From positions 720,001 through 752,000 of the forward strand of contig OY970322.1 in NCBI GenBank assembly GCA_963716945.1: a DNA stretch of 32,000 nucleotides. The letters run 5' to 3'. The translations under genes were made by a program, and so were the position numbers. Shown here piece after piece: positions 3,190 to 29,556 of this stretch (positions are counted from its first letter, which is position 1; each line of letters begins with the position of its first letter). The notes beneath the pieces were generated by a model, which saw only the letters and a list, made by a program, of their open reading frames with translations, was not told the DNA's origin and did no database searches. The stretch is from Candidatus Saccharimonadota bacterium. Its GTDB lineage: Bacteria > Patescibacteriota > Saccharimonadia > Saccharimonadales > UBA4665.

Positions 3190-3264
3190 AGGGGCATAGT
3201 ACAACGGCTAGTATAAGGGTCTCCAAAACCCTAGATCGTGGTTCGATTCCACGTGCCCCTGCCA
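3190..3264 (+). tRNA. tRNA-Trp (anticodon CCA), 3' CCA encoded
   Basis: Hand-folded cloverleaf: acceptor AGGGGCA/TGCCCCT, D arm GTAC..GTAT, anticodon arm AGGGT-CTCCAAA-ACCCT (anticodon CCA), T arm CGTGG-TTCGATT-CCACG, discriminator G, CCA. Confidence 0.9.
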
Positions 3265-9259: not shown

Positions 9260-9344
9260 GCAGGGTTAGTGAAGCGGTCAAACACGGCTGACTGTAAATC
9301 AGCTCCCTTCGGGTTCGGGGGTTCGAATCCCTCACCCTGCACCA
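9260..9344 (+). tRNA. tRNA-Tyr (anticodon GTA), long variable arm, CCA encoded
   Basis: Acceptor GCAGGGT/ACCCTGC, anticodon arm GCTGA-CTGTAAA-TCAGC, long variable arm TCCCTTCGGGTTC (bacterial class II Tyr), T arm GGGGG-TTCGAAT-CCCTC, A, CCA. Confidence 0.9.
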
Positions 9345-9667: not shown

Positions 9668-12109
9668 TTACGCGACGGCGACAGCGCCGTTAGCGTTACC
9701 GTTTCCATTGCCGTTACCATTCACGTGCGAAGGTTGTATAGAGGGGAATAGCCTGGCCGCCTGGCTGGCAGAATAGCCGGCGTAGCGCCCGAGGAGCTGC
9801 TCGACTTCCCGGCGAGCCTTGAGGGTTTGCGGTGACGGGGCGGAATCCAGCAGTTCAGCGACTCCCAGCTTGTGGCGGCCGGCTGTGAAACGCAATATTT
9901 TGCCGACCATTGAATGGCTGGCCGCGCCTGCCGGGCGCAAGGCGTCGATCTTTAGGATCAGGCGCGGGTCATCCGCTATCTGGCGTTTAACTTGGTCTAT
10001 ATGGTCGGAAGCCTCACGCTGCGAGCAGCCAAGCACCGAAGCGACTTTTTTAGGCGTAATCGGCAGCTCGTCGGCCAATATATAAGCCGTCATCTGGGCG
10101 GCCTCAAGTGCTTCGGGAGTTTGGGGCTGGCTTAGGTCTTCGGCCGCCACGCCGTAAGATTCGTAGATCTTCATTACTATGTCTTCGGCTTCCGGCGGTC
10201 TTGGAGCGTTATCCGGACTCATTAGATACTGGACTTCGGCTCGGAAGCGCGAATTGTTTTTCAGGAGCTTGGCAGCAGTACGAAGAAGCGGGCTTATGGT
10301 TCCGCGCTTACTGCCGATAGCTTTGCCGAGCTGATCCCGGCCAACGCAATCGTACTCGTTCATTATGGCAATAAAGGCCGCCCGGGCCCGAATGGCCTTA
10401 CGGGTACGGCCCCGCTTTAACTCAGCCTGATTAATTTCATAATAGCCCCTGACCGAACCCAGAGTCTCGGCCACCCGGTTTCTAGGCTTCTCGCCCCTGG
10501 CTAAAGCCTCGATCTCTTCGGCGAATACCCTCTTGCGGGCCGCCACGTCGGCAGCAGTTTTAGCCAAATCCAAAGCCGAACTGTGCTCTCGGTTATCAAA
10601 ACAAATGCCTACTTCGGCCATCGGCAAACGGGCCTGCTGACACCTCAGCATCGCTGCCCGCCGCGCCCGGCGGGTCATGAAGTCGCTTACGTCGCGGCCC
10701 ATTACCTTGATGGCCGGCCGGTTATAATAGGTGGCCGTATCCCTGATAATTTCATAAACGGCCTCTTTAATGTTCGGGTGGACCAGCCGTTCGTCAATAT
10801 CCGGCAAGTCGCCCTCGCCTACCAGCGCCACGGCCTTAGCCTCCCCTGGCTCACCGTCCTGGAAGACAAATGGTGCGGGCTTCTGGCTGAAAATTTGGCC
10901 GCGGACCCATGCCATCTGTTCGTTCAGCAAAGGACTTTCCAGGAGCTGCCGTTTAATTAAGAACCTGGCCCGCCGGACTACGCCTTCCCTGGCGAAACCA
11001 AAAAACTTGGCTATTTCCGGCGCGTAGGCATGGCCTCTTTCGGCTATTAGCGACATCGCCATACGACGGGCATACAGATCATCCGCTTCCAGTCCGGCCA
11101 TCACATCGGCCTTATCCTTGCCGGTAACTTGGGCTACCAGCTCGACGATCCGGTCATTAATTGAGAAGTCCACGGCCTCGGCGTTTTCGATGTAGTCAAT
11201 TTCGGCTGCCAGCATCGGATTGTCGGCCATTTCATCTTTGATGATGCCGGTCAATCGGGTCACCGTGGAACTGCTGATATCCAGCGCTTCTCTGGTTTCC
11301 TGAACCGATAGACCGAGCCTTTCGCGCAACAAGTAGGCATTGACGGCTTTAGGCCGGTCCAGACTAGTCGGCGACTTGCCTTCCGGTACGGTTTCGGGGT
11401 TGACGCCATAGAAGCTGTGAGTGTTCACCATGACGCGTCTGGCCTCCAGCTTAGGCGGAACCGGCAGTAAGCCGTCTTCCAGGGTTGCTATCTGGCGGTC
11501 AAAGACTTTATCGGCCTGCCTCAGTCGGGCAATCCGTCTTACCGCGTGGGGAACCTCGCTGTATCCGCCAAGGTTGGCCCGTTTAATAATAACCGACGGC
11601 CTGATAACGGTCTTTTCTGATAGCAGGTAGGCTATGACTTGCCGGGCTTCGCTGGGTTTGTGCTGGCTGCTGCTGGCAATTTGTTCGGCTGTCAGGTCAT
11701 CATAATGCATCGCCACCAGTTCGGGCCAAAACGAAACCGTCTCCAGGAGCGGTTCGCCGGTAGCTGCGGCCGTCAGCCCTTCCAGGTGCGCTTTGAATTT
11801 GGGGTCTTCGGCGGCCCTATCTCTGGTTCGGTCGAGACGGCGTTTTAGCATGTTGGGCTTACGCCCGAGCTGCTGGGCCAACTCTTGGTCATCCATCAGA
11901 CCGTTATCGGATATTAACGTCAGCATGGCATTTCTGGCATCCTGCAGTTGCGGGTCACGGGTATGGCTACCGTCTACCAACTCCCGGACCGGACGGTCGT
12001 AGTAGCAAGCGACGGCCAGGACCAAGCCGCCCAGCGTAACTTCACGGGGCATTGTTTCGGTTGCCGGGGCCAAAACCTCGGCAGCGGGCCGGTATTCCTG
12101 TTCACTCAT
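9668..12109 (-). CDS. Multi-HTH protein: about 8 tandem DnaA C-terminal (domain IV, Bac_DnaA_C-like) modules, no AAA+ domain, (Asn-Gly)n tail
   Basis: 813-aa ORF with a repeating unit of about 95 aa (approx. aa 26-112, 121-211, 222-308, 316-404, 446-536, 545-629, 641-724, 734-795). Units resemble DnaA domain IV. For example GYYEINQAELKRGRTRKAIRARAAFIAIM and FDNREHSSALDLAK compare with E. coli [29 protein letters not shown] and [15 protein letters not shown] (recalled from memory). No Walker motifs. Confidence 0.6.
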   Translation of the reverse strand: MSEQEYRPAAEVLAPATETMPREVTLGGLVLAVACYYDRPVRELVDGSHTRDPQLQDARNAMLTLISDNGLMDDQELAQQLGRKPNMLKRRLDRTRDRAAEDPKFKAHLEGLTAAATGEPLLETVSFWPELVAMHYDDLTAEQIASSSQHKPSEARQVIAYLLSEKTVIRPSVIIKRANLGGYSEVPHAVRRIARLRQADKVFDRQIATLEDGLLPVPPKLEARRVMVNTHSFYGVNPETVPEGKSPTSLDRPKAVNAYLLRERLGLSVQETREALDISSSTVTRLTGIIKDEMADNPMLAAEIDYIENAEAVDFSINDRIVELVAQVTGKDKADVMAGLEADDLYARRMAMSLIAERGHAYAPEIAKFFGFAREGVVRRARFLIKRQLLESPLLNEQMAWVRGQIFSQKPAPFVFQDGEPGEAKAVALVGEGDLPDIDERLVHPNIKEAVYEIIRDTATYYNRPAIKVMGRDVSDFMTRRARRAAMLRCQQARLPMAEVGICFDNREHSSALDLAKTAADVAARKRVFAEEIEALARGEKPRNRVAETLGSVRGYYEINQAELKRGRTRKAIRARAAFIAIMNEYDCVGRDQLGKAIGSKRGTISPLLRTAAKLLKNNSRFRAEVQYLMSPDNAPRPPEAEDIVMKIYESYGVAAEDLSQPQTPEALEAAQMTAYILADELPITPKKVASVLGCSQREASDHIDQVKRQIADDPRLILKIDALRPAGAASHSMVGKILRFTAGRHKLGVAELLDSAPSPQTLKARREVEQLLGRYAGYSASQAARLFPSIQPSHVNGNGNGNGNANGAVAVA
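9686..9721 (-). repeat. Imperfect AAY-GGN hexanucleotide coding repeat (NGNGNGNGNANG)
   Basis: Minus strand reads AAT GGT AAC GGC AAT GGA AAC GGT AAC GCT AAC GGC, 5 codons before the stop of the 813-aa ORF. Confidence 0.7.
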
Positions 12110-13735: not shown

Positions 13736-14589
13736 GCCGGCACCAGCCTATTGAATTCCGGCGGCAAAGGCGCCTTAAAGGTATGGCGTTCGCCATCGGG
13801 CAGCGTTATCTCAAGACTCAGGGCGTGCAGGAACAGCCGCTCGGCCGGCCGGCCGCCATACAAAGTATCGCCGACAATCGGGTGGCCGAGATACTTCAGG
13901 TGGACCCGCAGCTGGTGGGTCCGCCCGGTGGCCGGCTTCAGCTCCAGCAAACTGAGACGCCCGTCAGTCTTAAGGACTTTGTACTCCGTCTGGGCCGGCT
14001 TGCCGTTGCTGCCGACCCTGAAAGTCTGGGGCTGCTTGGGGTTGCGCTCAATCGGCATGTCAATCAGGGCCTGCGGTGCTTTGGGCGTACCGTCTACGAC
14101 GGCCATATACGTTTTCTTAGTTTTGCGCTCTGAAAATTGTTTCTGGAGCTTATGGAGCGCTTGCGGAGTTTTGGCGCAAATCATGACCCCGCTGGTCGCC
14201 CGGTCCAGACGGTGGACTATGCCGGCGCGCTCCCCTTTGGGCGCCAGCATCCGGCCGCGCAGCCAGGTCGAAACCGTAGCTTCGGGATTAAAGGAGCCTT
14301 TGCTGTGGGTCAGCAAACCGACCGGTTTATTGATGACGACGCAGTCATCGTCTTCGTAGATGACCGGTAAATCGATCTCCGGGAAAGTGACCGTTTTGGC
14401 CTCATCGAAAACTATTTTGATCCGGTCGGCCGGCCGTATCTTATAGCCGGGCTTGAGCTGGGGAACTCCGTTGACCAGCACGTCGCCATCCTCGATTAGC
14501 CTGGCCGCAAAACCGCGGCTGAGACCGGGCTGTTTGCGTACGACATACTGGTCTAACCTCTCCGCCCTGCTAATCTCCAGGTTACTCAC
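13732..14589 (-). CDS. rluD: RluA-family 23S rRNA pseudouridine synthase (RluD-like) with N-terminal S4 domain
   Basis: S4-like RLDQYV...SRGFAARLIEDGDVLVNG and catalytic motif HRLDRATSGVMICAKT. The GTG start overlaps the trpS stop by 1 nt. Confidence 0.85.
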   Translation of the reverse strand: MSNLEISRAERLDQYVVRKQPGLSRGFAARLIEDGDVLVNGVPQLKPGYKIRPADRIKIVFDEAKTVTFPEIDLPVIYEDDDCVVINKPVGLLTHSKGSFNPEATVSTWLRGRMLAPKGERAGIVHRLDRATSGVMICAKTPQALHKLQKQFSERKTKKTYMAVVDGTPKAPQALIDMPIERNPKQPQTFRVGSNGKPAQTEYKVLKTDGRLSLLELKPATGRTHQLRVHLKYLGHPIVGDTLYGGRPAERLFLHALSLEITLPDGERHTFKAPLPPEFNRLVPA

Positions 14590-15662
14590 TATCCCCTCAG
14601 GCCGACGGCCTTTTGAACCTTCAAAAGCGCCGCGTTAGCCTGCTCGTTCATCAACCTTTCAGAAGCCGCCAGCTTGTCCTCAATTGCCTGGTCGTCAACA
14701 GCCGCCAGCTCGGCCTGGAAGCCTGCAAGGAATTGTCCGATGGCCTCGGCAACGGCGCTTTTCAGCGGGCCATACTGGGTCTGGCCGTCATATTCCTGCC
14801 TCACAGCAGCACGGTCCTGACCGCCGAACAAAGCTAATATATCCATCAGGTTAGCAATTCCCGGCTGGTTGGCCGGGTCATAAGCGATTTTGCCCAAGCT
14901 ATCGGTTGTAGCGGCCATTATCTTCTGCCGGGCTTCTTCCGGCGTGTCGGTTAGGAAGATAACGCCTTTAGCGGAAGCTCCGGACTTGCTCATCTTCTTG
15001 GCCGGGTCGGCCAGGTCTTTAATCCTGAGGCCCTGGTCTTTGCCGAAGAATTCGTGCTGCTGCTTGACCGGTTTCGGCACCGTGAACAGCTCGCCGAACT
15101 TATTGTTAAGCCGTTCAGCTATATCGCGCGTGAACTCCAAATGCTGAGTCTGGTCATCGCCCACCGGCACGTATTCGGCGCCGTACAGCAAAATATCGGC
15201 CGCCATCATGACCGGGTAGTTGAATAGGCCCACGCTGACCCGGCTGGCGGCCGCCAGCTGGTCGGCGGCTTGGTGCGCGGACGCCTGGTTTTCGGCCTGG
15301 CCTGATTTGTCCTTGAATTGGGTCATGCGGCTCATTTCGCCGAAGCCCGTGAAGCAGTCTAAGATCCAAGTCAGCTCGCTGTGGGCCGGCACATAGCTCT
15401 GCCGGTAAAGGTGGACATCGGGATTATCGAGAGGCAGCCCGGCAGCTGCGAAAACCCGCAGGTTCTGCCTGATGCCGGCCTGCAAGCCGGCATGGTCAAT
15501 CGGTGTCGTGAAACTATGCAGGTCCGGCACGAAGAGGTTGACCTGGTATTCGCCGGCCCTGTGCTTAGCCAGGTCGACAAGCGGCAGCAAAGCGCCGAGA
15601 TAGTTGCCGATATGAAGGTCGTTGTTGGCTCTCAGGCCGGTTAGGATAACTGGTTTGCTCAT
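14589..15662 (-). CDS. trpS: Tryptophan--tRNA ligase
   Basis: Class I signature LHIGNYLGAL (HIGH variant), KMSKS, and the TrpRS-typical GLFNYPVMMAADILLY. Confidence 0.9.
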   Translation of the reverse strand: MSKPVILTGLRANNDLHIGNYLGALLPLVDLAKHRAGEYQVNLFVPDLHSFTTPIDHAGLQAGIRQNLRVFAAAGLPLDNPDVHLYRQSYVPAHSELTWILDCFTGFGEMSRMTQFKDKSGQAENQASAHQAADQLAAASRVSVGLFNYPVMMAADILLYGAEYVPVGDDQTQHLEFTRDIAERLNNKFGELFTVPKPVKQQHEFFGKDQGLRIKDLADPAKKMSKSGASAKGVIFLTDTPEEARQKIMAATTDSLGKIAYDPANQPGIANLMDILALFGGQDRAAVRQEYDGQTQYGPLKSAVAEAIGQFLAGFQAELAAVDDQAIEDKLAASERLMNEQANAALLKVQKAVGLRG

Positions 15663-15674
15663 GGCTTGGCCTTA

Positions 15675-15680
15675 ATTATA
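15675..15680 (-). promoter_or_regulatory. Candidate -10 box for trpS (very short 5' UTR implied)
   Basis: Minus strand TATAAT lies 12 nt upstream of the trpS ATG (TATAATtaaggccaagccATG). Only a weak -35 (CTCACA) at 17 nt. Confidence 0.3.
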
Positions 15681-15737
15681 GCGGAGTTTTGATTTATTGT
15701 GAGTTATCTTATGGGCGGCGCGTTTCAGAAGTCATGC

Positions 15738-15765
15738 TTGTTTTGGATTGCTAATGGTATATAAT
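15738..15765 (+). promoter_or_regulatory. Candidate promoter of the aromatic operon leader
   Basis: TGGTATATAAT at 15755-15765 (TATAAT at 15760-15765; TGG-TATATA is readable as an extended -10). Weak -35 TTGTTT at 15738-15743. The leader ATG is only 10 nt downstream. Confidence 0.4.
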
Positions 15766-15775
15766 AATCATTGTT

Positions 15776-15841
15776 ATGAGTAAAGACTTAATGGCGAACA
15801 ACTATTGGTTTACGGGCCGCTTCCCGGGAGGTCTTTGTTAA
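15776..15841 (+). CDS. Candidate attenuator leader peptide MSKDLMANNYWFTGRFPGGLC (consecutive Tyr-Trp-Phe codons)
   Basis: 21-codon ORF, too short for the ORF track. TAT TGG TTT at 15803-15811 and an extra TTC at 15821. Stop TAA at 15839-15841 lies 30 nt before an intrinsic terminator. No clear SD, so it may be leaderless or have a short leader. Confidence 0.5.
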   Translation: MSKDLMANNYWFTGRFPGGLC

Positions 15842-15879
15842 AGCCGTCATAACCGCTTAGACAAAACACAAACCTCCCG
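15825..15879 (+). promoter_or_regulatory. Candidate antiterminator pairing of the attenuator
   Basis: CGGGAGGT (15825-15832, inside the end of the leader ORF) is the exact reverse complement of ACCTCCCG (15872-15879), which is the 5' arm of the terminator. The two structures are mutually exclusive. Confidence 0.5.
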
Positions 15880-15898
15880 CCAGGGAGGTTTTTTGTTT
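15871..15898 (+). terminator. Intrinsic terminator (attenuator) upstream of aroB
   Basis: AACCTCCC-GCCA-GGGAGGTT (8-bp stem, 4-nt loop) followed directly by TTTTGTTT. Located between the leader ORF and aroB. Confidence 0.75.
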
Positions 15899-15945
15899 CG
15901 ACTATCGCCGACACCTAAGATGATATGCTAAATAAGGTAAATTAC

Positions 15946-17040
15946 ATGAAGAAAATCACCGTCAGCCTCCTCACGCCGCCGCCCAAACAGGATTATACGA
16001 TTTACGTCTCTGCCGGCGCGATCGGCGAAATTGCTTCGTTGTATGACTTCAGCGGCTACTCCAAAGTGTTTATAGTTACCGACGACACTGTCGGACACTT
16101 GTTTCTGGAGAAGCTGAAGGCGGCATTGCCCGTCAAACCGGCCTCGACAGTCCTGCCGGCCGGCGAACAGCAAAAGAGCCTGGATAACATCGAAAAAATT
16201 TGGACGGCCATGCATGCGGCCGGGTGCGACCGCAAATCGCTGGTTATAAACCTGGGCGGCGGCCTGGTCAGCGACATGGGCGGCTTTGCGGCCGCGACCT
16301 ACATGCGCGGCGTTGACTTCCTGAACCTGCCGACGACCCTGCTGGCCCAGGTCGATGCCAGCGTCGGCGGCAAGACCGGCTTCAATTTCGACGGTATCAA
16401 AAACCTGGTCGGAACGTTTGACCAGCCGGCGGCCGTAATTATCGACACCCAAACCCTGGAGGAGCTGCCGGAACGCGAGTTCTTGTCCGGTTTCGCTGAG
16501 ATTATTAAGCACGGTCTTGTCGCGGACAAGGCCTACTTTGAGGCGGTGGCCGCCAAGCCGCCGCTGGAGTTTACGCCGCCCGAGCTGGAGGAGATCATCG
16601 CGCTCTCCTGCGCCATTAAGTCCGGCGTCGTAAGAGCCGACGCCGGCGAGCAAGGCAGCCGCCGGCTCATTAATTTCGGCCATACCGTCGGCCATGCCAT
16701 AGAATCGTTGAGCCTGGAAACCGGCAAACCCCTGCTGCACGGCGAAGCGGTCAGCATCGGCATGGTCGCCGAAGCCGGAATCTCGAAAAGCCTGGGTAAA
16801 TTATCCGGGGACGAGTTCAGGCGCATAACAGCCGTTTTGCGCGCCGCCGGACTGCCGGTAGCCGTTTCCGGCCTGGCGGTCGACGATATTCTGGCCAAAA
16901 TGCAATCCGATAAAAAGAATGAGTATGGCGGCGTGAACTTCACCCTGCTGGACGGCATCGGCCGGGCCCTTTACAACCAAGCGGCCGGCCGGCCGGTAGT
17001 AATTGAAGCATTGCAGCTGGTTATCAGGGAAAAGCCGTGA
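15946..17040 (+). CDS. aroB: 3-dehydroquinate synthase
   Basis: NLGGGLVSDMGGFAAATYMRGVDFLNLPTTLLAQVDASVGGKTG, and the metal-binding region NFGHTVGHAIE..LLHGEAV. Start ATG 15946 has TAAGGT 8 nt upstream; the ORF-track start at 15925 is the alternative. Confidence 0.9.
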   Translation: MKKITVSLLTPPPKQDYTIYVSAGAIGEIASLYDFSGYSKVFIVTDDTVGHLFLEKLKAALPVKPASTVLPAGEQQKSLDNIEKIWTAMHAAGCDRKSLVINLGGGLVSDMGGFAAATYMRGVDFLNLPTTLLAQVDASVGGKTGFNFDGIKNLVGTFDQPAAVIIDTQTLEELPEREFLSGFAEIIKHGLVADKAYFEAVAAKPPLEFTPPELEEIIALSCAIKSGVVRADAGEQGSRRLINFGHTVGHAIESLSLETGKPLLHGEAVSIGMVAEAGISKSLGKLSGDEFRRITAVLRAAGLPVAVSGLAVDDILAKMQSDKKNEYGGVNFTLLDGIGRALYNQAAGRPVVIEALQLVIREKP

Positions 17041-18323
17041 AATACGCCCAGCTGCGCCCCCTAGACCGGCCGGCCGAGAGCCGCCTAAAACTGCCCGGTT
17101 CTAAGAGTTATACCAACCGGGCTCTGGTACTGGCAGCCATGACCCGGCGTCCCGTTAAGATAACCGGGCCGCTGTTTAGCGACGATACGCAGGCTATGAT
17201 TGGCTGCCTGAGAGCCTTGGGCGTCGGGATTGACAGCGGTGAAGACTTTATCAATGTCAGCGGCGACATAACGGCGGTAACCAACCGCGACTATGACCTG
17301 GACGCCGGCTTGTCGGGCACCACCATGCGCTTCATGCTGGCCCTCTGCGCGGTGCTGCCCGGACGCCAAACCCTGCACGGCCAAAAGCGGCTGCATGAGC
17401 GGCCGGTCGGCGCCCTAGTCGAGGCCCTGAGGCAGCTTGGCGCCAATATCGACTACCTCGCCGAAGAGGGCTACCCGCCGCTGGCGGTGGCAGCGCCAAA
17501 GCTCGCCGCCGGCGAAGTTAAGATCAGCGGCCAAGAAAGCAGCCAATACCTATCGGCTCTGCTAATGGTCGCGCCGCTGGTCGGAGACACGACCATCGAG
17601 GTCGAGGGCGAGCTTATTTCCGGGCCTTATGTCGCAATGACAATTGAGGCCATGCGGCAGTTTGGCGTCAAGGCCGCTTGCGATAAGCGCCAGTACAGGG
17701 TTACCGCTGGCCAGAATTACGGCTGCTCCGATTACCAAGTGGAGGGCGACGTGTCGAGCGGATCGTATTTTTGCGCCGTCGCCGCCCTGACGGAGTCGAC
17801 TTTCACTTTGGACAATATAAGCCTCGATTCACTGCAAGCCGACATCGGTTTTCTGGACATTCTGCGTTTGATGGGCAACACCGTGAGCGGCAGCGGCAAC
17901 ACAGTAACCATTACGGGCAAAGGTGTTAGGCCGGTCAACGCCGATATGCGCGGCTGCCCGGACCAGGTCCAGACCTTAGCGGTTTTGGCGGCTTTTGCCG
18001 ACGGCGTTACCACTATTAACGGTGTTAAATCACTGCGCATCAAAGAGACCGAGCGAGTCCTGGCGGTGCAGCAGGAGTTAGCTAAAATGGGCATAAAAAC
18101 GGCCGCTACACCGGATACCCTAACGGTGTATGGCGGACGCCCGCAAGCGGCGGCCATAGCTACCTATAACGACCACCGGATGGCCATGGCCTTCGCGGTT
18201 GCCGGCACTAAACTGTCCGGCCTGTCCATTGGAGATCCTGCCGTAGTCAATAAGACTTTTCCGGATTTTTGGCAAAAGCTTGAGTCTGTCGGTGTCGGCA
18301 TAAATATCGTGGAGGAGCCATGA
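17037..18323 (+). CDS. aroA: 3-phosphoshikimate 1-carboxyvinyltransferase (EPSP synthase)
   Basis: LPGSKSYTNRALVLAAM, LRIKETERV, DHRMAMAFAVAG. The GTG start overlaps the aroB stop (GTGA). Confidence 0.9.
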   Translation: MKYAQLRPLDRPAESRLKLPGSKSYTNRALVLAAMTRRPVKITGPLFSDDTQAMIGCLRALGVGIDSGEDFINVSGDITAVTNRDYDLDAGLSGTTMRFMLALCAVLPGRQTLHGQKRLHERPVGALVEALRQLGANIDYLAEEGYPPLAVAAPKLAAGEVKISGQESSQYLSALLMVAPLVGDTTIEVEGELISGPYVAMTIEAMRQFGVKAACDKRQYRVTAGQNYGCSDYQVEGDVSSGSYFCAVAALTESTFTLDNISLDSLQADIGFLDILRLMGNTVSGSGNTVTITGKGVRPVNADMRGCPDQVQTLAVLAAFADGVTTINGVKSLRIKETERVLAVQQELAKMGIKTAATPDTLTVYGGRPQAAAIATYNDHRMAMAFAVAGTKLSGLSIGDPAVVNKTFPDFWQKLESVGVGINIVEEP

Positions 18324-18829
18324 AAATAGTCTTAATCGGTTTCATGGGTACGGGTAAGACAACTGCCGCGCCGCGGCTAGCCGCCAACCTCTGTCTTGAA
18401 GCTGTTGAGATGGACGACCTGATTGTCGCCAAAGCCGGCGGCAGAAGCGTAGCCGCTATTTTTGAAGCCGGCGGCGAAGCGGCTTTCCGCGAGCTGGAAA
18501 TGGCGGTCGCTAAGGACCTGGCCGGCAGCCGGAACGTCGTTATTTCAACCGGCGGCGGCGTGGTTACAAGTCCGGTGACAATGGGTTACTTAACGCAGGA
18601 GGCGGTTGTCGTCGAGCTAAAGGCACTGTTCAATACCCTGATGGAGAGGCTAGACCCCACAACGCCCAGGCCGCTTTTCCAGGACCAAGCCCAAGCCGAA
18701 ATGCTATATGGCCTGCGCCGGCCGCTTTATAGTAAGTATGCGGCTATTAGCGTCGCGACTGACGGCAAAACGGTAGACCAAGTCGTTGAAGCCATTACCA
18801 ACCAAGTCAATAAGGTTAAAAATTCATGA
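18320..18829 (+). CDS. aroK: Shikimate kinase
   Basis: IVLIGFMGTGKTT Walker A; about 170 aa; ISTGGGVV. ATGA overlap with aroA and GGAGGAG SD upstream. Confidence 0.85.
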   Translation: MKIVLIGFMGTGKTTAAPRLAANLCLEAVEMDDLIVAKAGGRSVAAIFEAGGEAAFRELEMAVAKDLAGSRNVVISTGGGVVTSPVTMGYLTQEAVVVELKALFNTLMERLDPTTPRPLFQDQAQAEMLYGLRRPLYSKYAAISVATDGKTVDQVVEAITNQVNKVKNS

Positions 18830-19668
18830 AGATTAATGCCTCGACCAAACTCTGCGTAGTCATCGGCGACCCGGTCGAAGACTCATTGTCGCCCCAGATA
18901 CACAATGCCGGCTACGAGAAGCTCGGTATCGATGACAGGTTCGTCTACACCGCCTGCCTGATCAGCTCCGAAAAGCTGGCCGACTTCGTTGCCGGCGCCA
19001 AAGCCATGGGCATCCGCGGTATTTGCTGCAAGATGCCGCACAAGCTCGAAATTATGCGCTACCTGGATGAAACAGACCCTGTCGCCAAGACAATCGGCGC
19101 CGTCAATACGGTAGTCAATGATAACGGCCGGCTGACCGGCTACAACACCGACTGGATCGGCATCGTTAGGCCTCTCGAGGCCCTAACCGGCCTCCGAGGC
19201 AAGCGCGTCGCCCTGCTCGGTGCCGGGGGTGCCGCCCGCGCGGCGGCTTACGGAGTTACTAAGCAAGGCGCGGAACTAACCGTTTATAACCGCACCCTCG
19301 AGAAAGCCCGTTTGCTCGCCGGCCAATTCGGCGGCCAGGCCCGGCCGCTCAGCCGGCTTGAAGAAGTTAAGTCTATGGATGTCGTCATTAACAACACCTC
19401 CGTCGGGGTCCCCCTTTCGGATAATGAGACGCCTTTGCCGCAGGCCTTCATAAGCCCCCGCCATATCGTCTTCGACGCCGTCTACGCCGGCGGCCCGACG
19501 CGCCTCATGAGAGAAGCCGGCGAAATCGGGGCGCAGGTTATTCCGGGCACCGAAATGCTGTTACACCAAGGCATGGAGCAATTCAAGCTCTTCACCGGCC
19601 GGGAAGCACCCGAATCGGCCATGCGCGCCGCTTTTATGGCCGCGCTCGGCTCTAAGGAGGATAAGTAA
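18826..19668 (+). CDS. aroE: Shikimate 5-dehydrogenase
   Basis: SLSPQIHNAGY, AVNTVV, GYNTDWIG, NADP-binding LLGAGGAARAAAYG. ATGA overlap with aroK. Confidence 0.9.
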   Translation: MKINASTKLCVVIGDPVEDSLSPQIHNAGYEKLGIDDRFVYTACLISSEKLADFVAGAKAMGIRGICCKMPHKLEIMRYLDETDPVAKTIGAVNTVVNDNGRLTGYNTDWIGIVRPLEALTGLRGKRVALLGAGGAARAAAYGVTKQGAELTVYNRTLEKARLLAGQFGGQARPLSRLEEVKSMDVVINNTSVGVPLSDNETPLPQAFISPRHIVFDAVYAGGPTRLMREAGEIGAQVIPGTEMLLHQGMEQFKLFTGREAPESAMRAAFMAALGSKEDK

Positions 19669-20348
19669 TGGCTATAAATTACTGCCTGCCGCTTATAAAG
19701 AACAACCGGGCCGAAATACTCGACTCAATCCGGACTAACGGCGACAGCTACAGTTACTTTGAAGTCTGGCTGGACTATATCGACCCGGTGGATGATGTTT
19801 TCATTAAGGATTTAATCGGCCTGGCGGGCGAAAAGTTAATCCTGCTATTTCGCCGCCGGAACCTCGAACCAATTAAAATGCCCCTGGCGCGGCGCTTGGA
19901 GATACTGCAACTGCTCGACCAAACCCCGGCTCGCGCCGACCTGGACATCACCACGCAGACGGCTGAGCTGGACTACTTGCGCGATAATGATTTGGACATT
20001 AAAATCATTACCTCCTACCACGATTACGAAAAGACGCCCGACACCGTGCGGCTAGAGGCGATTATTGCTACAATGGAAGCGTATCGGCCGGCCGTTTATA
20101 AGCTGGCTGTCAAGTGCGGCAACCAAGAGGACGCGCTGCGGCTTTTGCAGCAGCTCCTGTCCCTGAAAGCGCAAGATCGGGCGGCTATAGTCCTGGGCAT
20201 GGGCCCGGCCGGACTGGTAACCAGAGTTTTCGGCGCGCTGTGGGGTAACGAGATGACATTCGCGCCTTTGGCCGAGGGTCAAGAGTCGGCACCGGGCCAG
20301 TTGAGCCGGCAGAAGCTCGAGGTAATTTTTAAGGAATTAGGGGTTTAG
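19668..20348 (+). CDS. aroD: Type I 3-dehydroquinate dehydratase
   Basis: About 226 aa. [10 protein letters not shown] (the S-x-H-x-F/Y-x-x-TP type motif) and VYKLAVK (Schiff-base Lys region). 1-nt overlap with the aroE stop (TAATG). Confidence 0.75.
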
Positions 20349-20352
20349 CGTT

Positions 20353-21438
20353 ATGGCTGGCAACACTTTTGGACAACTGTTTCGAATTACGACTTTTGGC
20401 GAGTCACACGGCGGCGCAGTCGGCGTAGTTGTCGACGGCTGCCCGCCGGGTTTAGCCATAACCGAAGCCGATATCCAAGCCCAGCTTGACCGGCGTCGGC
20501 CCGGCCAGAGCAGCATCACCACTCCCCGGCAGGAACAGGATGCCATACATATACTATCCGGCGTATCCGACAGCCTGACGACCGGCACGCCGATTCTGCT
20601 GCTGGCCCATAACAAAGATGCCCGGCCCGAAGACTATGCCGAGCTCAAGAATCTCTACCGTCCGGGCCACGCCGATTACACGTTCTTCAAGAAATACGGT
20701 ATCAGGGACTGGCGAGGCAGTGGCCGGGCTTCGGCCCGCGAGACACTGGGGAGGGTGGCTGCCGGGGCGATTGCCGAAAAGTATCTCCGCGAAAAACTGG
20801 GTATCGAGTTCATCAGCTATGTCGAGCAGGTCGGCGATATTAAGACCGGGATCGATTTTAATGAAGTGGCGGCCAAGGACATCGAAGCGAATATCGTCCG
20901 CTGCCCGGACCCCCAGGCCGCCGCTGAAATGATTAAGCTGATTGAAGCCGTCCGCGACGAAGGCGACTCCGTCGGCGGCGTCATCCGGGGCGTTATCAGA
21001 GGCGTCCCGGTCGGACTGGGCGAACCGGTATTCGATAAATTGCCGGCCGACCTGGCCAAAGCCATGATGAGCATCAACGCCGTCAAGGGTTTCGAAATCG
21101 GCTCCGGTTTCGCCGGCGTCAGTTTGCGCGGCAGCCAGCACAACGACGAGTTCTACGTTGATGAGCACGAACAAGTCAGGACCCGGACCAACTATGCAGG
21201 CGGCACGCTCGGCGGCATCTCGAACGGCGAGACGGTTTATTTCCGGGTCGCCATCAAGCCGGTTTCAACGATTAAGAAGCGGCAGCAGACGATTAATACC
21301 AGTGAAGAAGCCGTAACCTTGGAGGCTACCGGCCGGCATGACCCCTGTGTCTTGCCGCGGGCCGTTCCTATCGTCGACGCAATGGCGGCGCTCGTCATCA
21401 TGGACCACTACTTGCGCCAGAAAGCCCAGAACTCATAG
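20353..21438 (+). CDS. aroC: Chorismate synthase
   Basis: [41 protein letters not shown]-like (GRASARET), [13 protein letters not shown]. Confidence 0.95.
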
Positions 21439-21440
21439 CT

Positions 21441-21722
21441 ATGGATACCCAGGATGACCGGTTGAAAGCCTTCCGCCGGCAGATTGACGGGTTCGACGAG
21501 GAGCTGCTGCGGATCCTGTCGGAGCGCACCGATGTAGCCCGGCAAATCGGTGCCTACAAGAAAGCCCGCGGCCTCGGCCTGACCGACCAAAAACGGATGG
21601 AAGCCGTGCTGGCAACCCAACTAGCCCGGGCGTCGGCAGCCAACCTGCCTGAAGACTTCGTGCGTGAACTGTATGAGGTCATCTATAAGCACACCATAAG
21701 TATCGAGGCCGAAACCCCATGA
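21441..21722 (+). CDS. Chorismate mutase, AroQ class (stand-alone)
   Basis: 93 aa. LKAFRRQIDGFDEELLRILSERTDVARQIGAYKK matches the AroQ helix-1/2 pattern (R..ID.iD..ll.Ll..R......ig..K). Confidence 0.8.
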   Translation: MDTQDDRLKAFRRQIDGFDEELLRILSERTDVARQIGAYKKARGLGLTDQKRMEAVLATQLARASAANLPEDFVRELYEVIYKHTISIEAETP

Positions 21723-21768
21723 GGGGCCGCCAAGCTGTAGCGGCCGGGTTGGCAGTCAATTTTAAGCC

Positions 21769-23100
21769 ATGAAGCAGATTAGCATAATCGGTTTCGGTAG
21801 GTTCGGCGGTACGCTTTACCGTCTCGTTAAGGACGACTTCAAGGTGGTCCTATATGATAAGGCCGGGATCAAGCCGGGCAGCGGCAAGTTCACTAAAGAC
21901 ACCGTTATCACCAATGACCTGGCGGAAGTTTATGCCAGCGACGTTGTCTTTTACGCCGTACCGGTTTCGGAATTCGAATCCGTTATCGCCGCCCACCGGC
22001 ACCTTTTCCGGCCGGATCAGCTGCTGATTGACGTCTTGGCCGTCAAACTATACCCGGCCAAAGTTTTCGAAAAGTACCTCAAAGGCACCGCCGTCCAAGC
22101 CATGCTGACCCACCCGATGTTCGGGCCCGATAGCAGTCAGGACGGTTTCGCCGGTTTGCCGATAATAGTCAATCAATTTACGGCCGACGACCGGAATTTC
22201 AAATTCTGGAAAACTTACTTCGCCGGCAAGCAGCTCCGGGTGGTCGAGCTGACGCCCGAAGCCCACGACAAGATGGCCGCCAATTCCATCGGTCTGACAC
22301 ACTTCCTAGGCCGCTTGCTGGAACAGTATAAATTCGCGGCCACACCGATCGACACGGTCGGCGCCAAGAAACTACTTGAAATCAAGGAGCAGACTTGCCG
22401 CGACACTTGGCAGCTGTTTAACGACTTGCAGCATTACAACCCCTACACCGAGAAAATGCGGCTCAAGCTGGGGGAGGCCTACGATGTCGTCTACAACAAG
22501 CTCCTGCCGGCTCAGGTCAGCCCCCGCTACCTGACGATCGGCATTCAGGGCGGCAAAGGCAGCTTCAACGAAGAAGCCGTGATGTACTGGCTGCAGCGCT
22601 CCGGTATCAAGGATTACAAGATTAGGTACCTCTACACCAGCGAGAAAGTGCTGGCAGCTTTGCACGCCGGTGAAATCGACCGCGGACAGTTCGCTATCCA
22701 CAACTCGATTGGCGGCATCGTCGGCGAAAGCGTCGAAGCCATGGCCAGGTACAAGTTCACGATCATTGAGGAGTTCGCTATCGTAATCGCGCATGCCTTG
22801 ATGATCCGCGACGACGCCGAATATAGTGATATTACGACCGTTATGGCCCATCCCCAGGTCTTCGCGCAGTGCAAGCGTACGCTGCCGGAGAAATATCCGA
22901 ATCTTAAACTGATAGCCGGCGAAGGCGAATTGATCGACCATGCTAACGTTGCCAAGCACATGGCGGACCACAAACTGCCCAAGAACATCGCTACCATGGG
23001 CAGCAAAGTCCTGGCCGGCCTGTATAATCTCAAGGTAGTGGAAGATAACCTGCAGGACGCCGACGAGAATTACACAAGCTTTTTATTGGTGAGCCGTTAA
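21769..23100 (+). CDS. Fusion protein: prephenate (or arogenate) dehydrogenase (N) + prephenate dehydratase catalytic domain (C), no ACT domain
   Basis: N-half: [13 protein letters not shown] Rossmann motif, LTHPMFGP. C-half from about aa 255: [27 protein letters not shown] (cf. P-x-ENS-x-x-G-x-V), [10 protein letters not shown] (cf. SHPQALAQC). It ends [10 protein letters not shown], where PheA proteins have N-x-TRF and the ACT domain begins. Confidence 0.75.
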
Positions 23101-23101
23101 T

Positions 23102-25132
23102 ATGAGCCGGGAGGAACTTGACGCCCTCTGTATAAATACCATCCGCATGCTGTCGGCCGACGCCGTCGAGAAAGCTAAATCGGGCCATCCGGGGCTGCCG
23201 ATGGGCGCCGCGGCCTTTGCCTACACGCTCTGGATGAAGCGGCTGCGGTTCAACCCTAAGAATCCCGATTGGCCCAACCGCGACCGTTTCGTCTTGTCGG
23301 CCGGCCACGGTTCAATGTTATTGTATAGTTTACTACACCTGACCGGTTATGACTTGCCCCTGGGCGAACTCAAACGCTTCCGCCAATGGGGTAGCCGGAC
23401 CCCGGGCCACCCCGAACATGGCTTGACACCGGGGGTCGAGACTACGACCGGGCCGCTGGGACAGGGCTTCGCCAACGGCGTCGGCATGGCCTTGGCCGAG
23501 CGTTTCCTGGCCGACCGCTATAACCGGCCCGGCCATCGGATTATTGACTACCGTACCTACGCTATCGTGTCGGACGGCGATTTGATGGAGGGCGTCGCGG
23601 CCGAGGCGGCCTCGTTTGCCGGCGGCCTGGGGCTGGGAAAGCTGATTTACCTGTACGACAGCAACCGAATTTCGATTGAGGGCTCGACCGACCTGACCTT
23701 CTGCGACGATACATCCAAGCGGTTTGAAGCCTACGGCTGGCAGACTCTTGTCGTCGACGACGGCAACGACATGGACGCCGTTGACCGGGCGCTGCAAGCC
23801 GCCCAAGAAGATCCCCGGCCGTCATTGATAATCCTGCGGACGCATATCGGTTTCGGCAGCCCCAATAAGCAGGACAGCGCCTCGGCCCACGGCAGCGAGC
23901 TGGGGGAGGCAGAACTGCTCAAAACCAAGCGCAACCTCGGCTGGCCCGCCAAACCGAATTTCCGGATACCGACCGAAGCTCTGGAACATATGCGCGGCGG
24001 CAGCGTCAAACGGGGTAAACGCCTGGAGGCCGAATGGAACGAGCGCTTCAAGGCCTATGAGCGGGCTTTTCCGGAGCCGGCCGCCGAGCTCAAGGCGCGG
24101 CTTGAGGGCAAACTGCCGGACGGCTGGGATGCCGGCTTGCCGGTTTTCAGGCCCGGCGACGGGCCGTTGGCTACCAGGGAGGCCTCCGGGGCTGCCATGA
24201 ACGCCATCGCCGCCAACCTACCGTTATTCGTGGGCGGGTCGGCGGACTTGGGGCCTTCAAACAACACGCGGCTGAAGGATTTCGGCGATGTCAGCGCCCA
24301 ACAATGGGAATCCGGCGGCCGCAACCTGCATTTCGGCGTCCGCGAGCATGGCATGGGCGGCATCCTTAACGGCTTGGCCCTGTCAAAGGCCATCAGGCCG
24401 TTCGGCGGCACCTTCTTGGTTTTTTCGGACTATATGCGCGGCTCGATCCGGCTGGCCGCCCTTATGAAACTGCCTGTGGTTTACGTATTGACGCATGACT
24501 CAATCGGCCAGGGCGAAGACGGTGCGACCCACCAGCCGGTCGAGCACCTGGCTTCGCTCCGGGCTATGCCTGGCCTGACAGTTATCCGGCCGTCGGATGC
24601 CGCCGAAACGGTCGAAGCGTGGCGGCAAGCCATCTTATCGTCCGACGGCCCGACGGCTTTGGTCCTGACCCGCCAGAAATTGCCCGTAATTGACCGGTCG
24701 GCCGGACTGGCGGCGGCCGATAACTTGCGCTACGGCGGCTACACTATCCGGAGCTGCAGGGACAAGCCCGACATAATCTTAATCGCGACCGGCTCGGAAG
24801 TGCCGCTAGCCCTCGAAGCCGCGGCGTTACTGGATAGGCAGGGCATGCGCGCGCAGGTTGTCGCCATGCCCAGCACCGGCTTATTTGAGCGGCAAAGCCA
24901 AAAATATAAGGACAGCGTCCTGCCGCCCGCGGTAACCGCCCGGCTGGTCATTGAGGCCGCTTCGCCGTTTGGTTGGCGCGAGTATGCCGGGCCGGGCGGT
25001 GGCATAATGGGTATTGCCGGATTCGGCGCGTCGGCACCGGGCAGCGTGATGATGGAAAAGTTCGGTTTCACGCCCGAAAACGTCGCCAAACGGGCAAAAC
25101 AGCTACTAGTTAAGAGAGGAGCAAAACCATGA
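23102..25132 (+). CDS. tkt: Transketolase
   Basis: 676 aa. [31 protein letters not shown] (ThDP motif), [18 protein letters not shown]. Confidence 0.95.
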
Positions 25133-25992
25133 AACCTAAAGACCTGAAGACCAGGATTTTCTTAGACAGCGGCGACCCGGCCGAAACTGAGCGGATATTG
25201 TCACTCATGGGTTTCTTGGATGGTCAAACGACTAATCCGACACTGGTGTCGCGCAACCCCCACGCCCGCGAACGCTTCGACAAAGGCGAGAAATTTTCGG
25301 CGGACGAGATTTATGATTTTTACAAGCAGGTGGTCGGCGACATATCACAACTAATCCCCGAGGGTTCGGTATCGATCGAAGTCTACGCCGATAAGACGAC
25401 CTCGGCCGAAGCCATGCTGGAGCAAGGCCGCAAGATGTACGGCTGGATCCCGAACGCCCATATTAAGTATCCTGTCACGGCAGCTGGCTTGGCGGCCGCG
25501 GAACAGAGTGTCAAGGCGGGCCTGCGGGTCAATCTAACGCTCTGCTTCTCCCAAGCCCAGGCGGCAGCCGTTTACGCGGCCACGAAGGGCGCCCAGCCGG
25601 GCGGCGCCTTCGTCTCGCCGTTTGCCGGCCGTTTGGACGATATCGGCGAGAATGGTATGGCGGCCGTCGAAAATATAGTCAGGATGTATGCCAAAGGTGA
25701 CGGCCACACCGAAGTTTTAGCGGCCAGCATACGGACATATGATCACTTTATGCAGTCACTGGCCGCCGGCGCGGACATCGTTACGGCCCCTTTCGGCATA
25801 CTGGAGCAATGGGCCAAAGCCGGACGGCCGCTGCCCGGGCCTGATTTCAGCTACCACCCGCCGGGTCTCAAAGCTATACCGTACGAACAGATTGACCTGG
25901 ACCAGCCATGGCAGTCATTTGACATACGGCATCCCCTGACCGACAAAGGCATTGACAGCTTCTCGGCAGACTGGAACGCCTTGATCGGCTAA
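25129..25992 (+). CDS. tal: Transaldolase (short TalC/FSA-type core with insertion and about 55-aa C-terminal extension)
   Basis: [19 protein letters not shown], Schiff-base Lys context [30 protein letters not shown] overlap with tkt. Confidence 0.85.
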
Positions 25993-26624
25993 ACCGAGCC
26001 CAGGCTGTCTATAATCTCAAGGCAGCGCTCGACCTTCGTAATATCCAGGTCGTCATTACCGTCGCGAACGCCGCCGGCAATGTCGATGCCGTAGGGGTTG
26101 GTTTGGGCCAGCCTGACGGCCAGGTTGTCGGGTGACAGGCCGCCGGCCAGGAATAGCCTGCCCGGTTCGGCGGCAATTACCTCGGCTGCCAGTTCGGCGT
26201 CGACAAGCTCACCTTGCCCTTGCCGCGGCCGGTCAAGCACGAAGTAGGCGGCCGGAAAATTGTTTACGAACTCAATGATGTCGGCTGCCGCTTGGCCCGG
26301 CAAGACGGCAATAGCCCGGATGACTTCAGAGTCCACGCCCCGGGCATAGTCGGCAGCCTCATTGCCGTGCAGCTGAACGTAGTCAACTTTTAGGCGGCCG
26401 GCATACTCATTAACTTCGCCAAGCGGCCGGCCGGCGAATAAGGCCGCGACCTGAAGGCTGCTGCCGGCCAGCTCGGCCATGATGGCCTCCGCCGTTTCAA
26501 GCGATACGCACCGGCTGGACGCAGCTATGAAGTTGAGGCCGACTAGGTCAACCCCGCTAGCCCGCAGCAGCTTGGCCTCGGCCACGGATTTGACACCGCA
26601 AATTTTCAGCTTGGCGGCGCTCAT
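25989..26624 (-). CDS. trpF: Phosphoribosylanthranilate isomerase
   Basis: LKICGVKSVAEA, GLNF, VQLHG, AGGLSPDN. Its stop codon (25989-25991) interdigitates with the tal stop (25990-25992). Confidence 0.85.
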   Translation of the reverse strand: MSAAKLKICGVKSVAEAKLLRASGVDLVGLNFIAASSRCVSLETAEAIMAELAGSSLQVAALFAGRPLGEVNEYAGRLKVDYVQLHGNEAADYARGVDSEVIRAIAVLPGQAAADIIEFVNNFPAAYFVLDRPRQGQGELVDAELAAEVIAAEPGRLFLAGGLSPDNLAVRLAQTNPYGIDIAGGVRDGNDDLDITKVERCLEIIDSLGSV

Positions 26625-27634: not shown

Positions 27635-28215
27635 TTTACGGCCTCCTTCAGGAAGTTCTTAAGCAGCGCTTTGCCGGTTTCGGTGCGGAAAGACTCCGGG
27701 TGGAACTGTAACCCGAAAGTCGGGTAATTCCGGTGATGGAAAGCCATCACCGACCCGTCGCCGGCCACCGAATCAACTGCCAGGAACGAAGGCAAAGTCT
27801 TGGCGTCGACGACCAGTGAATGATAGCGCATTACGGTAATTTTGTCAGGCAGGCCGGCGAACAGCCCTTGCCCGCTATGGCTTAGGTCACTGGTTTTGCC
27901 ATGCATAATAACCGGCGCCTTGGTAACCGAGGCGCCAAAAGCGGCGCCGATGCCTTGATGCCCCAAGCAAATGCCGAGTATCGGGTAGGTTTGGTGGAAC
28001 TCTTCGATAACCTGGCGGTTGCCGCCAAAATAATCCGGATCGGTAGGGTCGCCCGGGCCGGGCGATATGACGATGTGGCTGAAGTCGCCGGCCTTGATCC
28101 TATTAACCGGTATCTTATTATTCCGGGCAACCGTCACCTCGTCGGCCAGCTCGCCCAAATACTGGTACAAATTATAAGTAAAGGAGTCAAAGTTATCGAT
28201 CAGCAGGACCTTCAT
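27631..28215 (-). CDS. trpG: Anthranilate synthase component II (glutamine amidotransferase)
   Basis: IDNFDSFTYNL, PILGICLGHQ (catalytic Cys), LQFHPES. Confidence 0.95.
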   Translation of the reverse strand: MKVLLIDNFDSFTYNLYQYLGELADEVTVARNNKIPVNRIKAGDFSHIVISPGPGDPTDPDYFGGNRQVIEEFHQTYPILGICLGHQGIGAAFGASVTKAPVIMHGKTSDLSHSGQGLFAGLPDKITVMRYHSLVVDAKTLPSFLAVDSVAGDGSVMAFHHRNYPTFGLQFHPESFRTETGKALLKNFLKEAVK

Positions 28216-29552: not shown

Positions 29553-29556
29553 CGCC

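Follow-up and report, generated by a model that had tools for sequence, protein, structure and literature searches.

The intergenic region between the divergent trpS and aroB genes of a Candidatus Saccharimonadota bacterium (GenBank assembly GCA_963716945.1, contig OY970322.1, positions 720,001 to 752,000; this whole 32,000-nt stretch is referred to as the window) carries an element that we read, at a probability of about 0.8 from sequence comparison and folding models, as a ribosome-mediated (leader-peptide) transcription attenuator of the aromatic amino-acid operon. The operon would most likely be turned up when aromatic amino acids are short. A Tyr/Trp/Phe leader-peptide attenuator had been proposed at this site in a preliminary description made from the window alone, and its promoter-like TGGTATATAAT, small open reading frame (ORF), TAT TGG TTT codons, complementary 8-mers and hairpin were all present in the sequence where it had located them, between trpS and aroB genes that were confirmed with Pfam (Table 1). 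The proposal gained support from eight distinct sequences in which the ORF and its frame are conserved, every leader encodes Trp, Tyr and Phe, the antiterminator core pairs without exception and the terminator is retained.

Conservation and probable translation of the leader

Close relatives were reached by a protein search followed by exact-protein look-ups of the encoding contigs. Scans of genome and metagenome collections for aroB gave only relatives of at most 52% identity with a different gene order, and most of their matches came from universally conserved peptide patterns; the same scans yielded the distant analogues L002, L003 and L103 described below. Seven further distinct relatives (L161, L163, L165, L167, L171, L173 and L178) had aroB proteins 61–80% identical to that of the window and the trpS–aroB arrangement that is common to all close relatives. 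All seven carried the whole module, comprising a TATAAT box, an ATG without a Shine-Dalgarno (SD) sequence, an ORF of 21–25 codons, a Trp/Tyr/Phe cluster, GGGAGG and the terminator. Together with the window they form the family of eight sequences to which the counts below refer. Those aroB homologues to which their sources give a name are 'Candidatus Saccharimonadales', and the contigs of two relatives are 1.05 and 1.07 Mb long; the organism is accordingly a member of the Candidate Phyla Radiation/Patescibacteria.

The start and stop codons of the leader were conserved throughout the family, frame 0 was open in all eight leaders and stops were found in 15 of the 16 alternative frames. Indels within the ORF were of 3, 6 or 12 nt, all multiples of three, while 1- and 2-nt indels also occurred outside it. 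Each leader encoded exactly one Trp, one or two Tyr and one to five Phe residues, with aromatic residues making up 14–33% of the peptide; the neighbouring proteins contained 7.2% aromatic residues (3.6% Phe, 0.5% Trp and 3.2% Tyr). The codons TGG TTT were invariant and Tyr was encoded synonymously by TAT or TAC in seven leaders, the eighth (L178) having Thr in its place but an extra Tyr further on. Because the indels preserve the frame, the start and stop are conserved and TAT alternates with TAC, the leader ORF appears to be translated.

These features bear on an alternative in which sensing is done by the untranslated RNA (as a riboswitch, a T-box-like tRNA sensor or a TRAP-like protein-binding site) acting on the same terminator, with the ORF incidental. 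Any such mechanism could make use of the terminator/antiterminator pair, and the weak sub-threshold matches returned by Rfam leave room for it; however, the signs of translation run counter to it, relatives differ freely in sequence from the ATG to the aromatic cluster, and the element of ∼120 nt has no conserved structured aptamer. A search of positions 15600–16000 against Rfam gave no family at its gathering score and four matches at E ≤ 10, among which there was no T-box or riboswitch family. Phe_leader reached 21.3 bits (E = 0.3) on the plus strand against a gathering score of 55, with a similar match on the minus strand (21–24 bits overall), and both this match and that to RNAI (29.7 bits) were judged to be chance matches driven by the terminator; Trp_leader gave no match. 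TRAP-like triplet repeats were rejected, as the sequence contained only three GAG/UAG triplets with irregular spacing. We therefore consider an RNA sensor very improbable.

The peptide was poorly conserved outside the aromatic cluster and a Gly-Gly pair. At codons −8, −7 and −5 from the stop, in contrast, the third positions were invariant (C at 15817, C at 15820 and G in the codon before GGA) despite the five, four and six different amino acids encoded there. Since the wobble positions are constant while the amino acids vary, selection appears to act on the bases and not on the peptide, which argues for an RNA-level constraint next to the regulatory codons.

Terminator and putative antiterminator

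The intrinsic terminator that lies between the leader ORF and aroB consists of a 9-bp stem and UUUUUUGUUU, with the hairpin AAACCTCCC-GCCA-GGGAGGTTT at 15870–15891 followed by TTTGTTT to 15898. In a 20-kb scan no other terminator-like site had as long a stem or as good a T-tract, and the hairpin was predicted at −14.6 kcal/mol. The stem begins 28 nt after the leader stop (28–32 nt in the relatives), slightly less than the 30 nt given in the preliminary description. A CCUCCC/GGGAGG terminator was present in all eight sequences, in which 97% of the alignment cells were paired, including one compensatory pair (A-U, G-C, G-U).

Segment 2, the 5′ strand of the putative antiterminator, lies within the last five sense codons of the leader and extends by one base into the stop codon. 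Within it, CGGGAGGT (15825–15832) is the exact complement of ACCTCCCG (15872–15879). Across the family all 56 cells of the antiterminator core (GGGAGGY with RCCUCCC) were standard pairs, one pair varying between U-A, U-G and C-G, and the invariant GGGAGG ended 7 nt before the stop in every leader. The heptamer GGGAGGT occurs five times in the 32 kb (both strands), three of them within 15826–15889. This clustering, the quality of the terminator and the conservation of the module exceed what chance would give. The domain 15825–15879, in which the 8-bp helix closes an inner hairpin, was predicted at −21.4 kcal/mol; an equivalent inner helix of different sequence was predicted in all relatives. 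The 136-nt region as a whole gave z = −2.4 against shuffles. Pairing of UGGUUU (the Trp-Phe codons) with the AAACC flank of the terminator was discarded as a coincidence, being broken in L173 and L178.

GGGAGG (15826–15841 region) is a perfect SD-like sequence. When a ribosome waits at the stop, 4 nt separate the end of GGGAGG from the P-site codon, and one might speculate that it pairs with the anti-SD of the terminating ribosome.

Predicted response to ribosome position

We simulated the ribosome with a mask that extended 13 or 16 nt past the first base of the P site. With the ribosome at the stop codon, full-length RNA folded into the terminator in all eight sequences. With the ribosome stalled at Trp/Phe, nascent RNA in which the 3′ arm was not yet made folded into the antiterminator in all eight, and full-length RNA at equilibrium did so in five. 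The switch by ribosome position, as first proposed, was thus reproduced in the masked folds.

The preliminary description had seen no upstream segment able to sequester segment 2 and had concluded that the attenuator has three elements; two candidates for such a segment were found. The first is a local hairpin at 15814–15834 (pattern GCC.CYU...GGG.GGU), predicted by RNAalifold and at −5.5 to −7.9 kcal/mol in all eight sequences, whose 5′ strand (segment 1) a ribosome halted at the Trp or Phe codon would cover in our model. The second is a helix of 12 bp between the 5′ end of the ORF (15777–15789) and 15829–15840, which was 81% paired across relatives with one A-U to C-G change and whose covariation score was reached by 26 of 500 shuffles. 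Counting against both candidates, nascent RNA without a ribosome still folded as the antiterminator in all eight sequences. On these models the attenuator probably has four elements rather than strictly three.

The mechanism that we propose would run as follows. Transcription would start a few bases after the conserved TATAAT, and a ribosome would load at the 5′-terminal ATG without an SD sequence and translate the 21 codons as RNA polymerase moves on over the next ∼60 nt. As long as all three tRNAs (Tyr, Trp and Phe) are charged, the ribosome would reach the TAA, where by the folding models its footprint would cover GGGAGGU (15826–15832) and melt the inner hairpin; the freed segment 3 (ACCUCCC) would then pair with segment 4, leading to termination at the U-tract near 15898. 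Should one of these tRNAs run short, the ribosome would stall at codons 10–12 with its leading edge at about 15813–15822, masking the weak segment 1 and leaving GGGAGGU free to pair with ACCUCCC as it emerges (a domain of −21 kcal/mol versus a terminator of −15 kcal/mol), and the polymerase would read through into aroB...tal. Without any ribosome, the ORF RNA may fold on itself through the 5′-end helix with 15829–15840 and the local hairpin, favouring termination, although for this state the window's family gave mixed predictions. The −10-like block after the terminator may give basal expression outside attenuator control.

The same layout could also respond to general translation capacity (ribosome availability, shortage of any amino acid, antibiotics) rather than specifically to aromatic aminoacyl-tRNA. 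Specificity is weak with one Tyr and one Trp codon, any ribosome that is slow upstream of 15814 would free GGGAGG, and the SD-like GGGAGG might itself slow ribosomes. However, Trp, the rarest residue in the neighbouring proteins, occurs once in all eight leaders and recurs in the three analogues, and the target is the aromatic pathway operon in every sampled case. Moreover, six relatives have extra Phe/Tyr codons within the next five codons after the cluster, and the aromatic codons of these six longer leaders expand precisely ahead of segment 1: an aromatic codon stands at −9 from the stop in all leaders but those of the window and L161, in which the Phe of Tyr-Trp-Phe stands at −10. A purely general sensor is hence hardly probable, and aromatic aminoacyl-tRNA remains our preferred signal.

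Table 1. Coordinates and sequences of the features in the window and of the leaders and intergenic regions in other loci
Feature	Locus	Coordinates	Strand	Sequence or content	Basis or remark
trpS (tryptophanyl-tRNA synthetase)	window	14589–15662	−		Pfam tRNA-synt_1b, E = 2e-55; divergent neighbour, synteny anchor
trpS promoter-like site	window	15675–15703	−	CTCACA, 17-nt spacer, TATAAT	consensus promoter scan, score 10/12
P1 −10 block (putative)	window	15755–15765	+	TGGTATATAAT (TATAAT at 15760–15765)	TATAAT invariant in 8/8 sequences
Leader ORF	window	15776–15841	+	MSKDLMANNYWFTGRFPGGLC; 21 codons + TAA (15839–15841)	ATG at 15776, no SD
Regulatory codons	window	15803–15811	+	TAT TGG TTT (Tyr10 Trp11 Phe12)	sequence; conserved aromatic cluster
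Candidate segment 1	window	15814–15822	+	GGGCCGCUU	pairs with 15826–15834, local hairpin
Segment 2, putative antiterminator 5′ strand	window	15825–15839	+	CGGGAGGU then CUUUGUU	SD-like; pairs with 15872–15879 in 8/8 nascent-RNA folds
Inner hairpin of antiterminator domain, stop codon included	window	15834–15865	+		folding
Intrinsic terminator	window	15870–15898	+	segment 3 AAACCUCCC, loop GCCA, segment 4 GGGAGGUUU, tail UUUGUUU	terminator scan, folding
Conserved block, candidate proximal promoter P2	window	15908–15945	+	ACACCTAAGATGATATGCTAAATAAGGTAAATTAC	aroB ribosome-binding site AAGG; −10-like hexamers TAAGAT and TATGCT
aroB	window	15946–17040	+		Pfam; ATG at 15946
Operon proposed to be controlled	window	15946–25992	+	aroB, aroA, aroK, aroE, aroD (type I), aroC, chorismate mutase, prephenate dehydrogenase/dehydratase fusion, tkt, tal	Pfam
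Leader peptide	L161			MSKDLLTSNYWFTSRLPGGLC	
Leader peptide	L165			MSKDILTSNYWFGFSAFSRLRGGLC	
Leader peptide	L163			MSTDFRTGYWFDFGFYAAPKGGLF	
Leader peptide	L167			MNDNFRVNYWFGFDFYTHLRGGLS	
Leader peptide	L171			MSTELAVNYWFDFGFYSPSQGGLS	
Leader peptide	L173			MVKQHANYWFYLGNFSHLMGGSG	
Leader peptide	L178			MSKDLQAGNTWFGYFVFNRLSGGSC	
Attenuator-less intergenic region	L170	2915–3003			
Attenuator-less intergenic region	L175	2928–3003			
Attenuator-less intergenic region	L176	2935–3003			
Attenuator-less intergenic region	L177	2938–3003			
Analogue leader	L002	569–705		MKLISVSSYYFYFFNPQWREGANMS	YYFYFF..W
Analogue leader	L003 (Candidatus Roizmanbacteria metagenome-assembled genome)	853–1000		MLMVLKNSRTFYFYFTFSLMASWSFNTGNK	FYFYFTF..W
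Analogue leader	L103	2–172		MLVCITPQQYYRYYAFTWRTGCAGGGIA	YYRYYAFTW

Analogous leaders in distant relatives

We scanned 178 loci for aromatic-rich small ORFs that end just ahead of a terminator. Beyond the window's family, three matches were obtained (L002, L003 and L103), each with a leader directly upstream of an aro operon and followed by an intrinsic terminator, and with an aroB protein 41–49% identical to that of the window. All three leaders contain Trp, and TATAAT stands 6–8 nt before the ATG in L002 and L003. The first operon gene encodes 3-deoxy-D-arabino-heptulosonate 7-phosphate (DAHP) synthase, assigned by Pfam in L103 and by reading of the N-terminal sequence alone in L002 and L003. 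The leader sequences are unrelated to that of the window, with helices of CCCGC/GCGGG in L002 and CUCGC/GCGAG in L003.

In nascent folds of these analogues without a ribosome, segment 2 was held inside the ORF and segment 3 was unpaired; once a ribosome was placed at the last aromatic codon, segments 2 and 3 paired with each other. The nascent folds of all three thus gave a full 1:2 / 2:3 / 3:4 switch, while full-length equilibrium folds of the same loci gave the terminator in every ribosome state. The recurrence of the same design in different sequences strongly supports its function.

Candidate promoters and the probable start of the leader transcript

The distance from TATAAT to the leader ATG was 7 nt in L163, L167 and L171, 9 nt in L173 and 10 nt in the window, L161, L165 and L178. 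A consensus promoter scan did not list a plus-strand promoter here because the −35 is weak, and the assignment of P1 accordingly draws on the invariant −10 block in the relatives and not on a mapped start site. An SD sequence was absent before the leader ATG in all eight sequences. Given this absence and the short distance from the −10, the transcript is probably leaderless or has a leader of 2–4 nt, and translation of the leader ORF is probably leaderless or nearly so. A hairpin predicted by RNAalifold at alignment columns 6–24 (from the −10 box to the ATG) was rejected because it lies mostly upstream of the likely start site.

A near-leaderless layout was also seen at the divergent trpS, whose −10 lies 12 nt before its ATG and implies a very short 5′ untranslated region (UTR), and at aroB of the attenuator-less L176, with a −10 about 5–10 nt before the ATG; judging from such sequences, leaderless or very-short-leader mRNAs may be common in this lineage. 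The trpS promoter block TTATAGCGGAG..TTTATTGTGA was kept in relatives, even in those lacking the attenuator. A leader for trpS on the minus strand was rejected, the minus-strand fold being unremarkable (z = −1.45) and the trpS promoter adjoining its ATG.

Between the terminator and aroB, almost all bases of the block at 15908–15945 were invariant across alignment A1, which makes it better conserved than the leader ORF, and its TAAGATG.TAT core was kept in L170 and L175. By its sequence this block may be a second promoter, P2, or a 5′-UTR element. A longer aroB with its N terminus extended to the ATG at 15925 was rejected, as this frame is not kept in L163.

The block raises the alternative that the ORF and terminator form an independent short unit (a micropeptide gene or a small RNA), that aroB is transcribed from its own promoter within 15908–15945 and that the terminator merely insulates the two. 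The near invariance of the block and its −10-like hexamers speak for this arrangement, as do the strength of the terminator and the retention of the block's core in L170 and L175, which must still express aroB without the module. Against this, the conservation of the peptide is poor outside the aromatic cluster and Gly-Gly, and Gly-Gly itself is explained by the invariant GGGAGG together with the invariance at wobble positions. A free-standing gene would have no use for the complementarity of the antiterminator strand or for a constant 7-nt spacing between GGGAGG and the stop, and the leaders of L002, L003 and L103, which lie ∼30–60 nt before the first aro gene, leave little room for another promoter. 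An independent unit is therefore clearly unlikely in comparison with an attenuator of the operon.

Operon and neighbouring genes

The genes of the proposed target operon overlap or abut, the sole gap being one of 46 nt (21723–21768) ahead of the prephenate dehydrogenase/dehydratase gene, and the 20-kb terminator scan showed no strong internal terminator. Judged from its genes, the operon makes chorismate, Phe and Tyr and also supplies erythrose-4-phosphate, which makes it a suitable target for the attenuator. The preliminary description had named the shikimate genes with tkt and tal, all of which were found; to these we add the chorismate mutase and the prephenate dehydrogenase/dehydratase fusion, and a DAHP synthase gene was found neither in the operon nor anywhere else in the window. 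AroB requires DAHP, and it is the DAHP synthase gene that comes first after the leader in L103 and probably also in L002 and L003.

The TyrA/PheA-type fusion (21769–23100) encodes one protein of 443 aa with an N-terminal prephenate dehydrogenase domain and a prephenate dehydratase domain, and is preceded by a free-standing chorismate mutase of 93 aa. A convergent trp operon (trpC-B-A-E-G-D-F) on the minus strand, 25989–32000, abuts the aro operon, the stops of tal (25992) and trpF (25989) overlapping by 4 nt with no terminator between them; the start of this operon, and any Trp leader, would lie outside the window, past its right end. Together with trpS, the aro and trp operons make up an aromatic supercluster of ∼17 kb. 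Genes for tRNA-Trp(CCA) and tRNA-Tyr(GTA) occur at 3190–3264 and 9260–9344 of the window, probably by coincidence. On the minus strand, an ORF of 813 aa (9668–12109) had only weak repeated matches to helix-turn-helix domains (DnaA C-terminal, sigma-70 region 4 and MarR-like).

Discussion

Attenuators that read several amino acids are represented by the ilvGMEDA and ilvBN leaders (Leu/Val/Ile codons) and the thr leader (Thr/Ile). The proposed attenuator resembles these in that one peptide would integrate several aminoacyl-tRNA pools of one pathway; the ilv and thr leaders serve other pathways and contain long runs of regulatory codons, whereas that of the window contains a single Tyr codon, a single Trp codon and two Phe codons, only one of which is in the cluster. 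With trpL, pheL and pheM of E. coli (Rfam RF00513 and RF01859) it shares a leader ORF, codons for the end products, mutually exclusive antiterminator and terminator helices and a segment 2 that is masked by the terminating ribosome. The E. coli leaders differ in sensing one amino acid each through tandem codons, in SD-dependent translation and in a strong 1:2 pause hairpin.

Mixed-aromatic leaders ahead of shikimate genes have precedents, and the novelty of a multi-aromatic leader is accordingly less than the preliminary description had supposed. The aroR leader of Corynebacterium glutamicum, first seen by RNA-seq (PMC4046766), encodes Phe-Tyr-Phe upstream of aroF (Neshat et al. 2014, as described in PMC11802643). 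According to that description, ribosome stalling under Phe limitation induces the operon and Tyr availability was reported to have no effect (PMC11802643). As compared through this description, aroR and the window's leader are both short ORFs with mixed aromatic codons ahead of a shikimate-pathway operon, and we propose for the window the same logic by which stalling raises operon transcription. They differ in that the window's leader also has a Trp codon (Tyr-Trp-Phe versus Phe-Tyr-Phe), that its first gene is aroB and not the DAHP synthase gene aroF, that its operon comprises the whole common pathway with the Phe/Tyr branch and tkt/tal, and that its host belongs to the Candidate Phyla Radiation (CPR) and not to the actinobacteria.

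The uORFC-13-1 motif, found by the Breaker laboratory in Acholeplasma and environmental sequences, consists of a promoter, a small upstream ORF (uORF) that contains Phe codons and, next to it, an intrinsic terminator, all ahead of a shikimate gene (PMC8632094). Its authors proposed that it acts through the speed of amino-acid incorporation, and described a ribosome-binding site, a U-run coding for Phe and an exclusive association with aroF (PMC8632094). The window's element shares with it the order of promoter, small uORF with aromatic codons and terminator ahead of a shikimate gene, but is set apart, by description, by the lack of a ribosome-binding site before the ATG at 15776, by the Tyr-Trp-Phe triplet and by aroB downstream. 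L002 and L003, with UUUUACUUUUUU-type runs upstream of DAHP synthase, resemble uORFC-13-1 by description more than the window does, and the leaders of L002, L003 and L103 may be related to that motif.

Several points weigh against the attenuator that we propose, the support for which is computational throughout. The window's leader has a single Tyr and a single Trp codon besides its two Phe codons, where classical leaders have tandem runs of regulatory codons, and sensing from single codons may be weak; the reported insensitivity of aroR to Tyr likewise leaves three-way sensing unproven. Translation of the leader ORF would proceed without an SD sequence, by a leaderless initiation that we infer for this lineage. 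Of the signs that the preliminary description had proposed to look for upstream of aroB in relatives, conservation was seen in the aromatic cluster, the ORF and the 8-mer cores; covariation was weak, and shuffle controls were not exceeded for either antiterminator or terminator. Because GGGAGG and CCUCCC never vary, covariation is uninformative for the two core helices, and the structural support consists therefore of conservation and geometry. In full-length equilibrium folds, L165, L167 and L171 keep the terminator despite a stalled ribosome, and the switch must therefore be kinetic, as it is in classical attenuators. Four relatives (L170, L175, L176 and L177) share the synteny but lack the promoter-leader-terminator module, their intergenic regions being 63–89 nt long, which shows the module to be dispensable; as L170 retains both flanking conserved blocks, ∼175 nt seem to have been gained or lost as one cassette. 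Finally, the −10-like block after the terminator could, by its sequence, drive aroB independently of the attenuator.

The mechanism is textbook and mixed-aromatic leaders are known, so the advance lies in breadth and not in principle: the element is a new sequence family within a well-known mechanism. What is new is the CPR lineage, the apparently leaderless translation of the leader, the presence of all three aromatic residues in one leader and the proposed control of a whole aroBAKEDC-chorismate mutase-tyrA/pheA-tkt-tal operon. A full-text literature search found no work linking the Candidate Phyla Radiation with transcription attenuation, and to our knowledge almost nothing is known of gene regulation in CPR/Patescibacteria.

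More tentatively, and with considerable doubt, the window's element might typify a broad, hitherto undescribed group of leader-peptide attenuators, leaderless and with mixed Tyr/Trp/Phe codons, that provide the main transcriptional control of aro operons across CPR/Patescibacteria; the cases behind this wider view are Saccharimonadales-like genomes of ∼1 Mb, the Roizmanbacteria genome and others. If it holds, ultra-small bacteria would have tight transcription-translation coupling and SD-independent initiation at 5′ ends, one codon per aromatic amino acid would be enough for three-way sensing, and the SD-like GGGAGG just ahead of the P-site codon might be bound by the anti-SD of a terminating ribosome, which would stabilise the 'terminate' state.

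A cassette of 120 nt that reads three aromatic aminoacyl-tRNA pools, as proposed here, would be a candidate for a reusable biosensor. For the biology of the lineage, a conserved attenuator would be sequence-level evidence for transcription-translation coupling and leaderless initiation in CPR bacteria, and some Saccharimonadales-like genomes of only ∼1 Mb would be seen to keep, and actively regulate, a complete pathway for aromatic amino acids.

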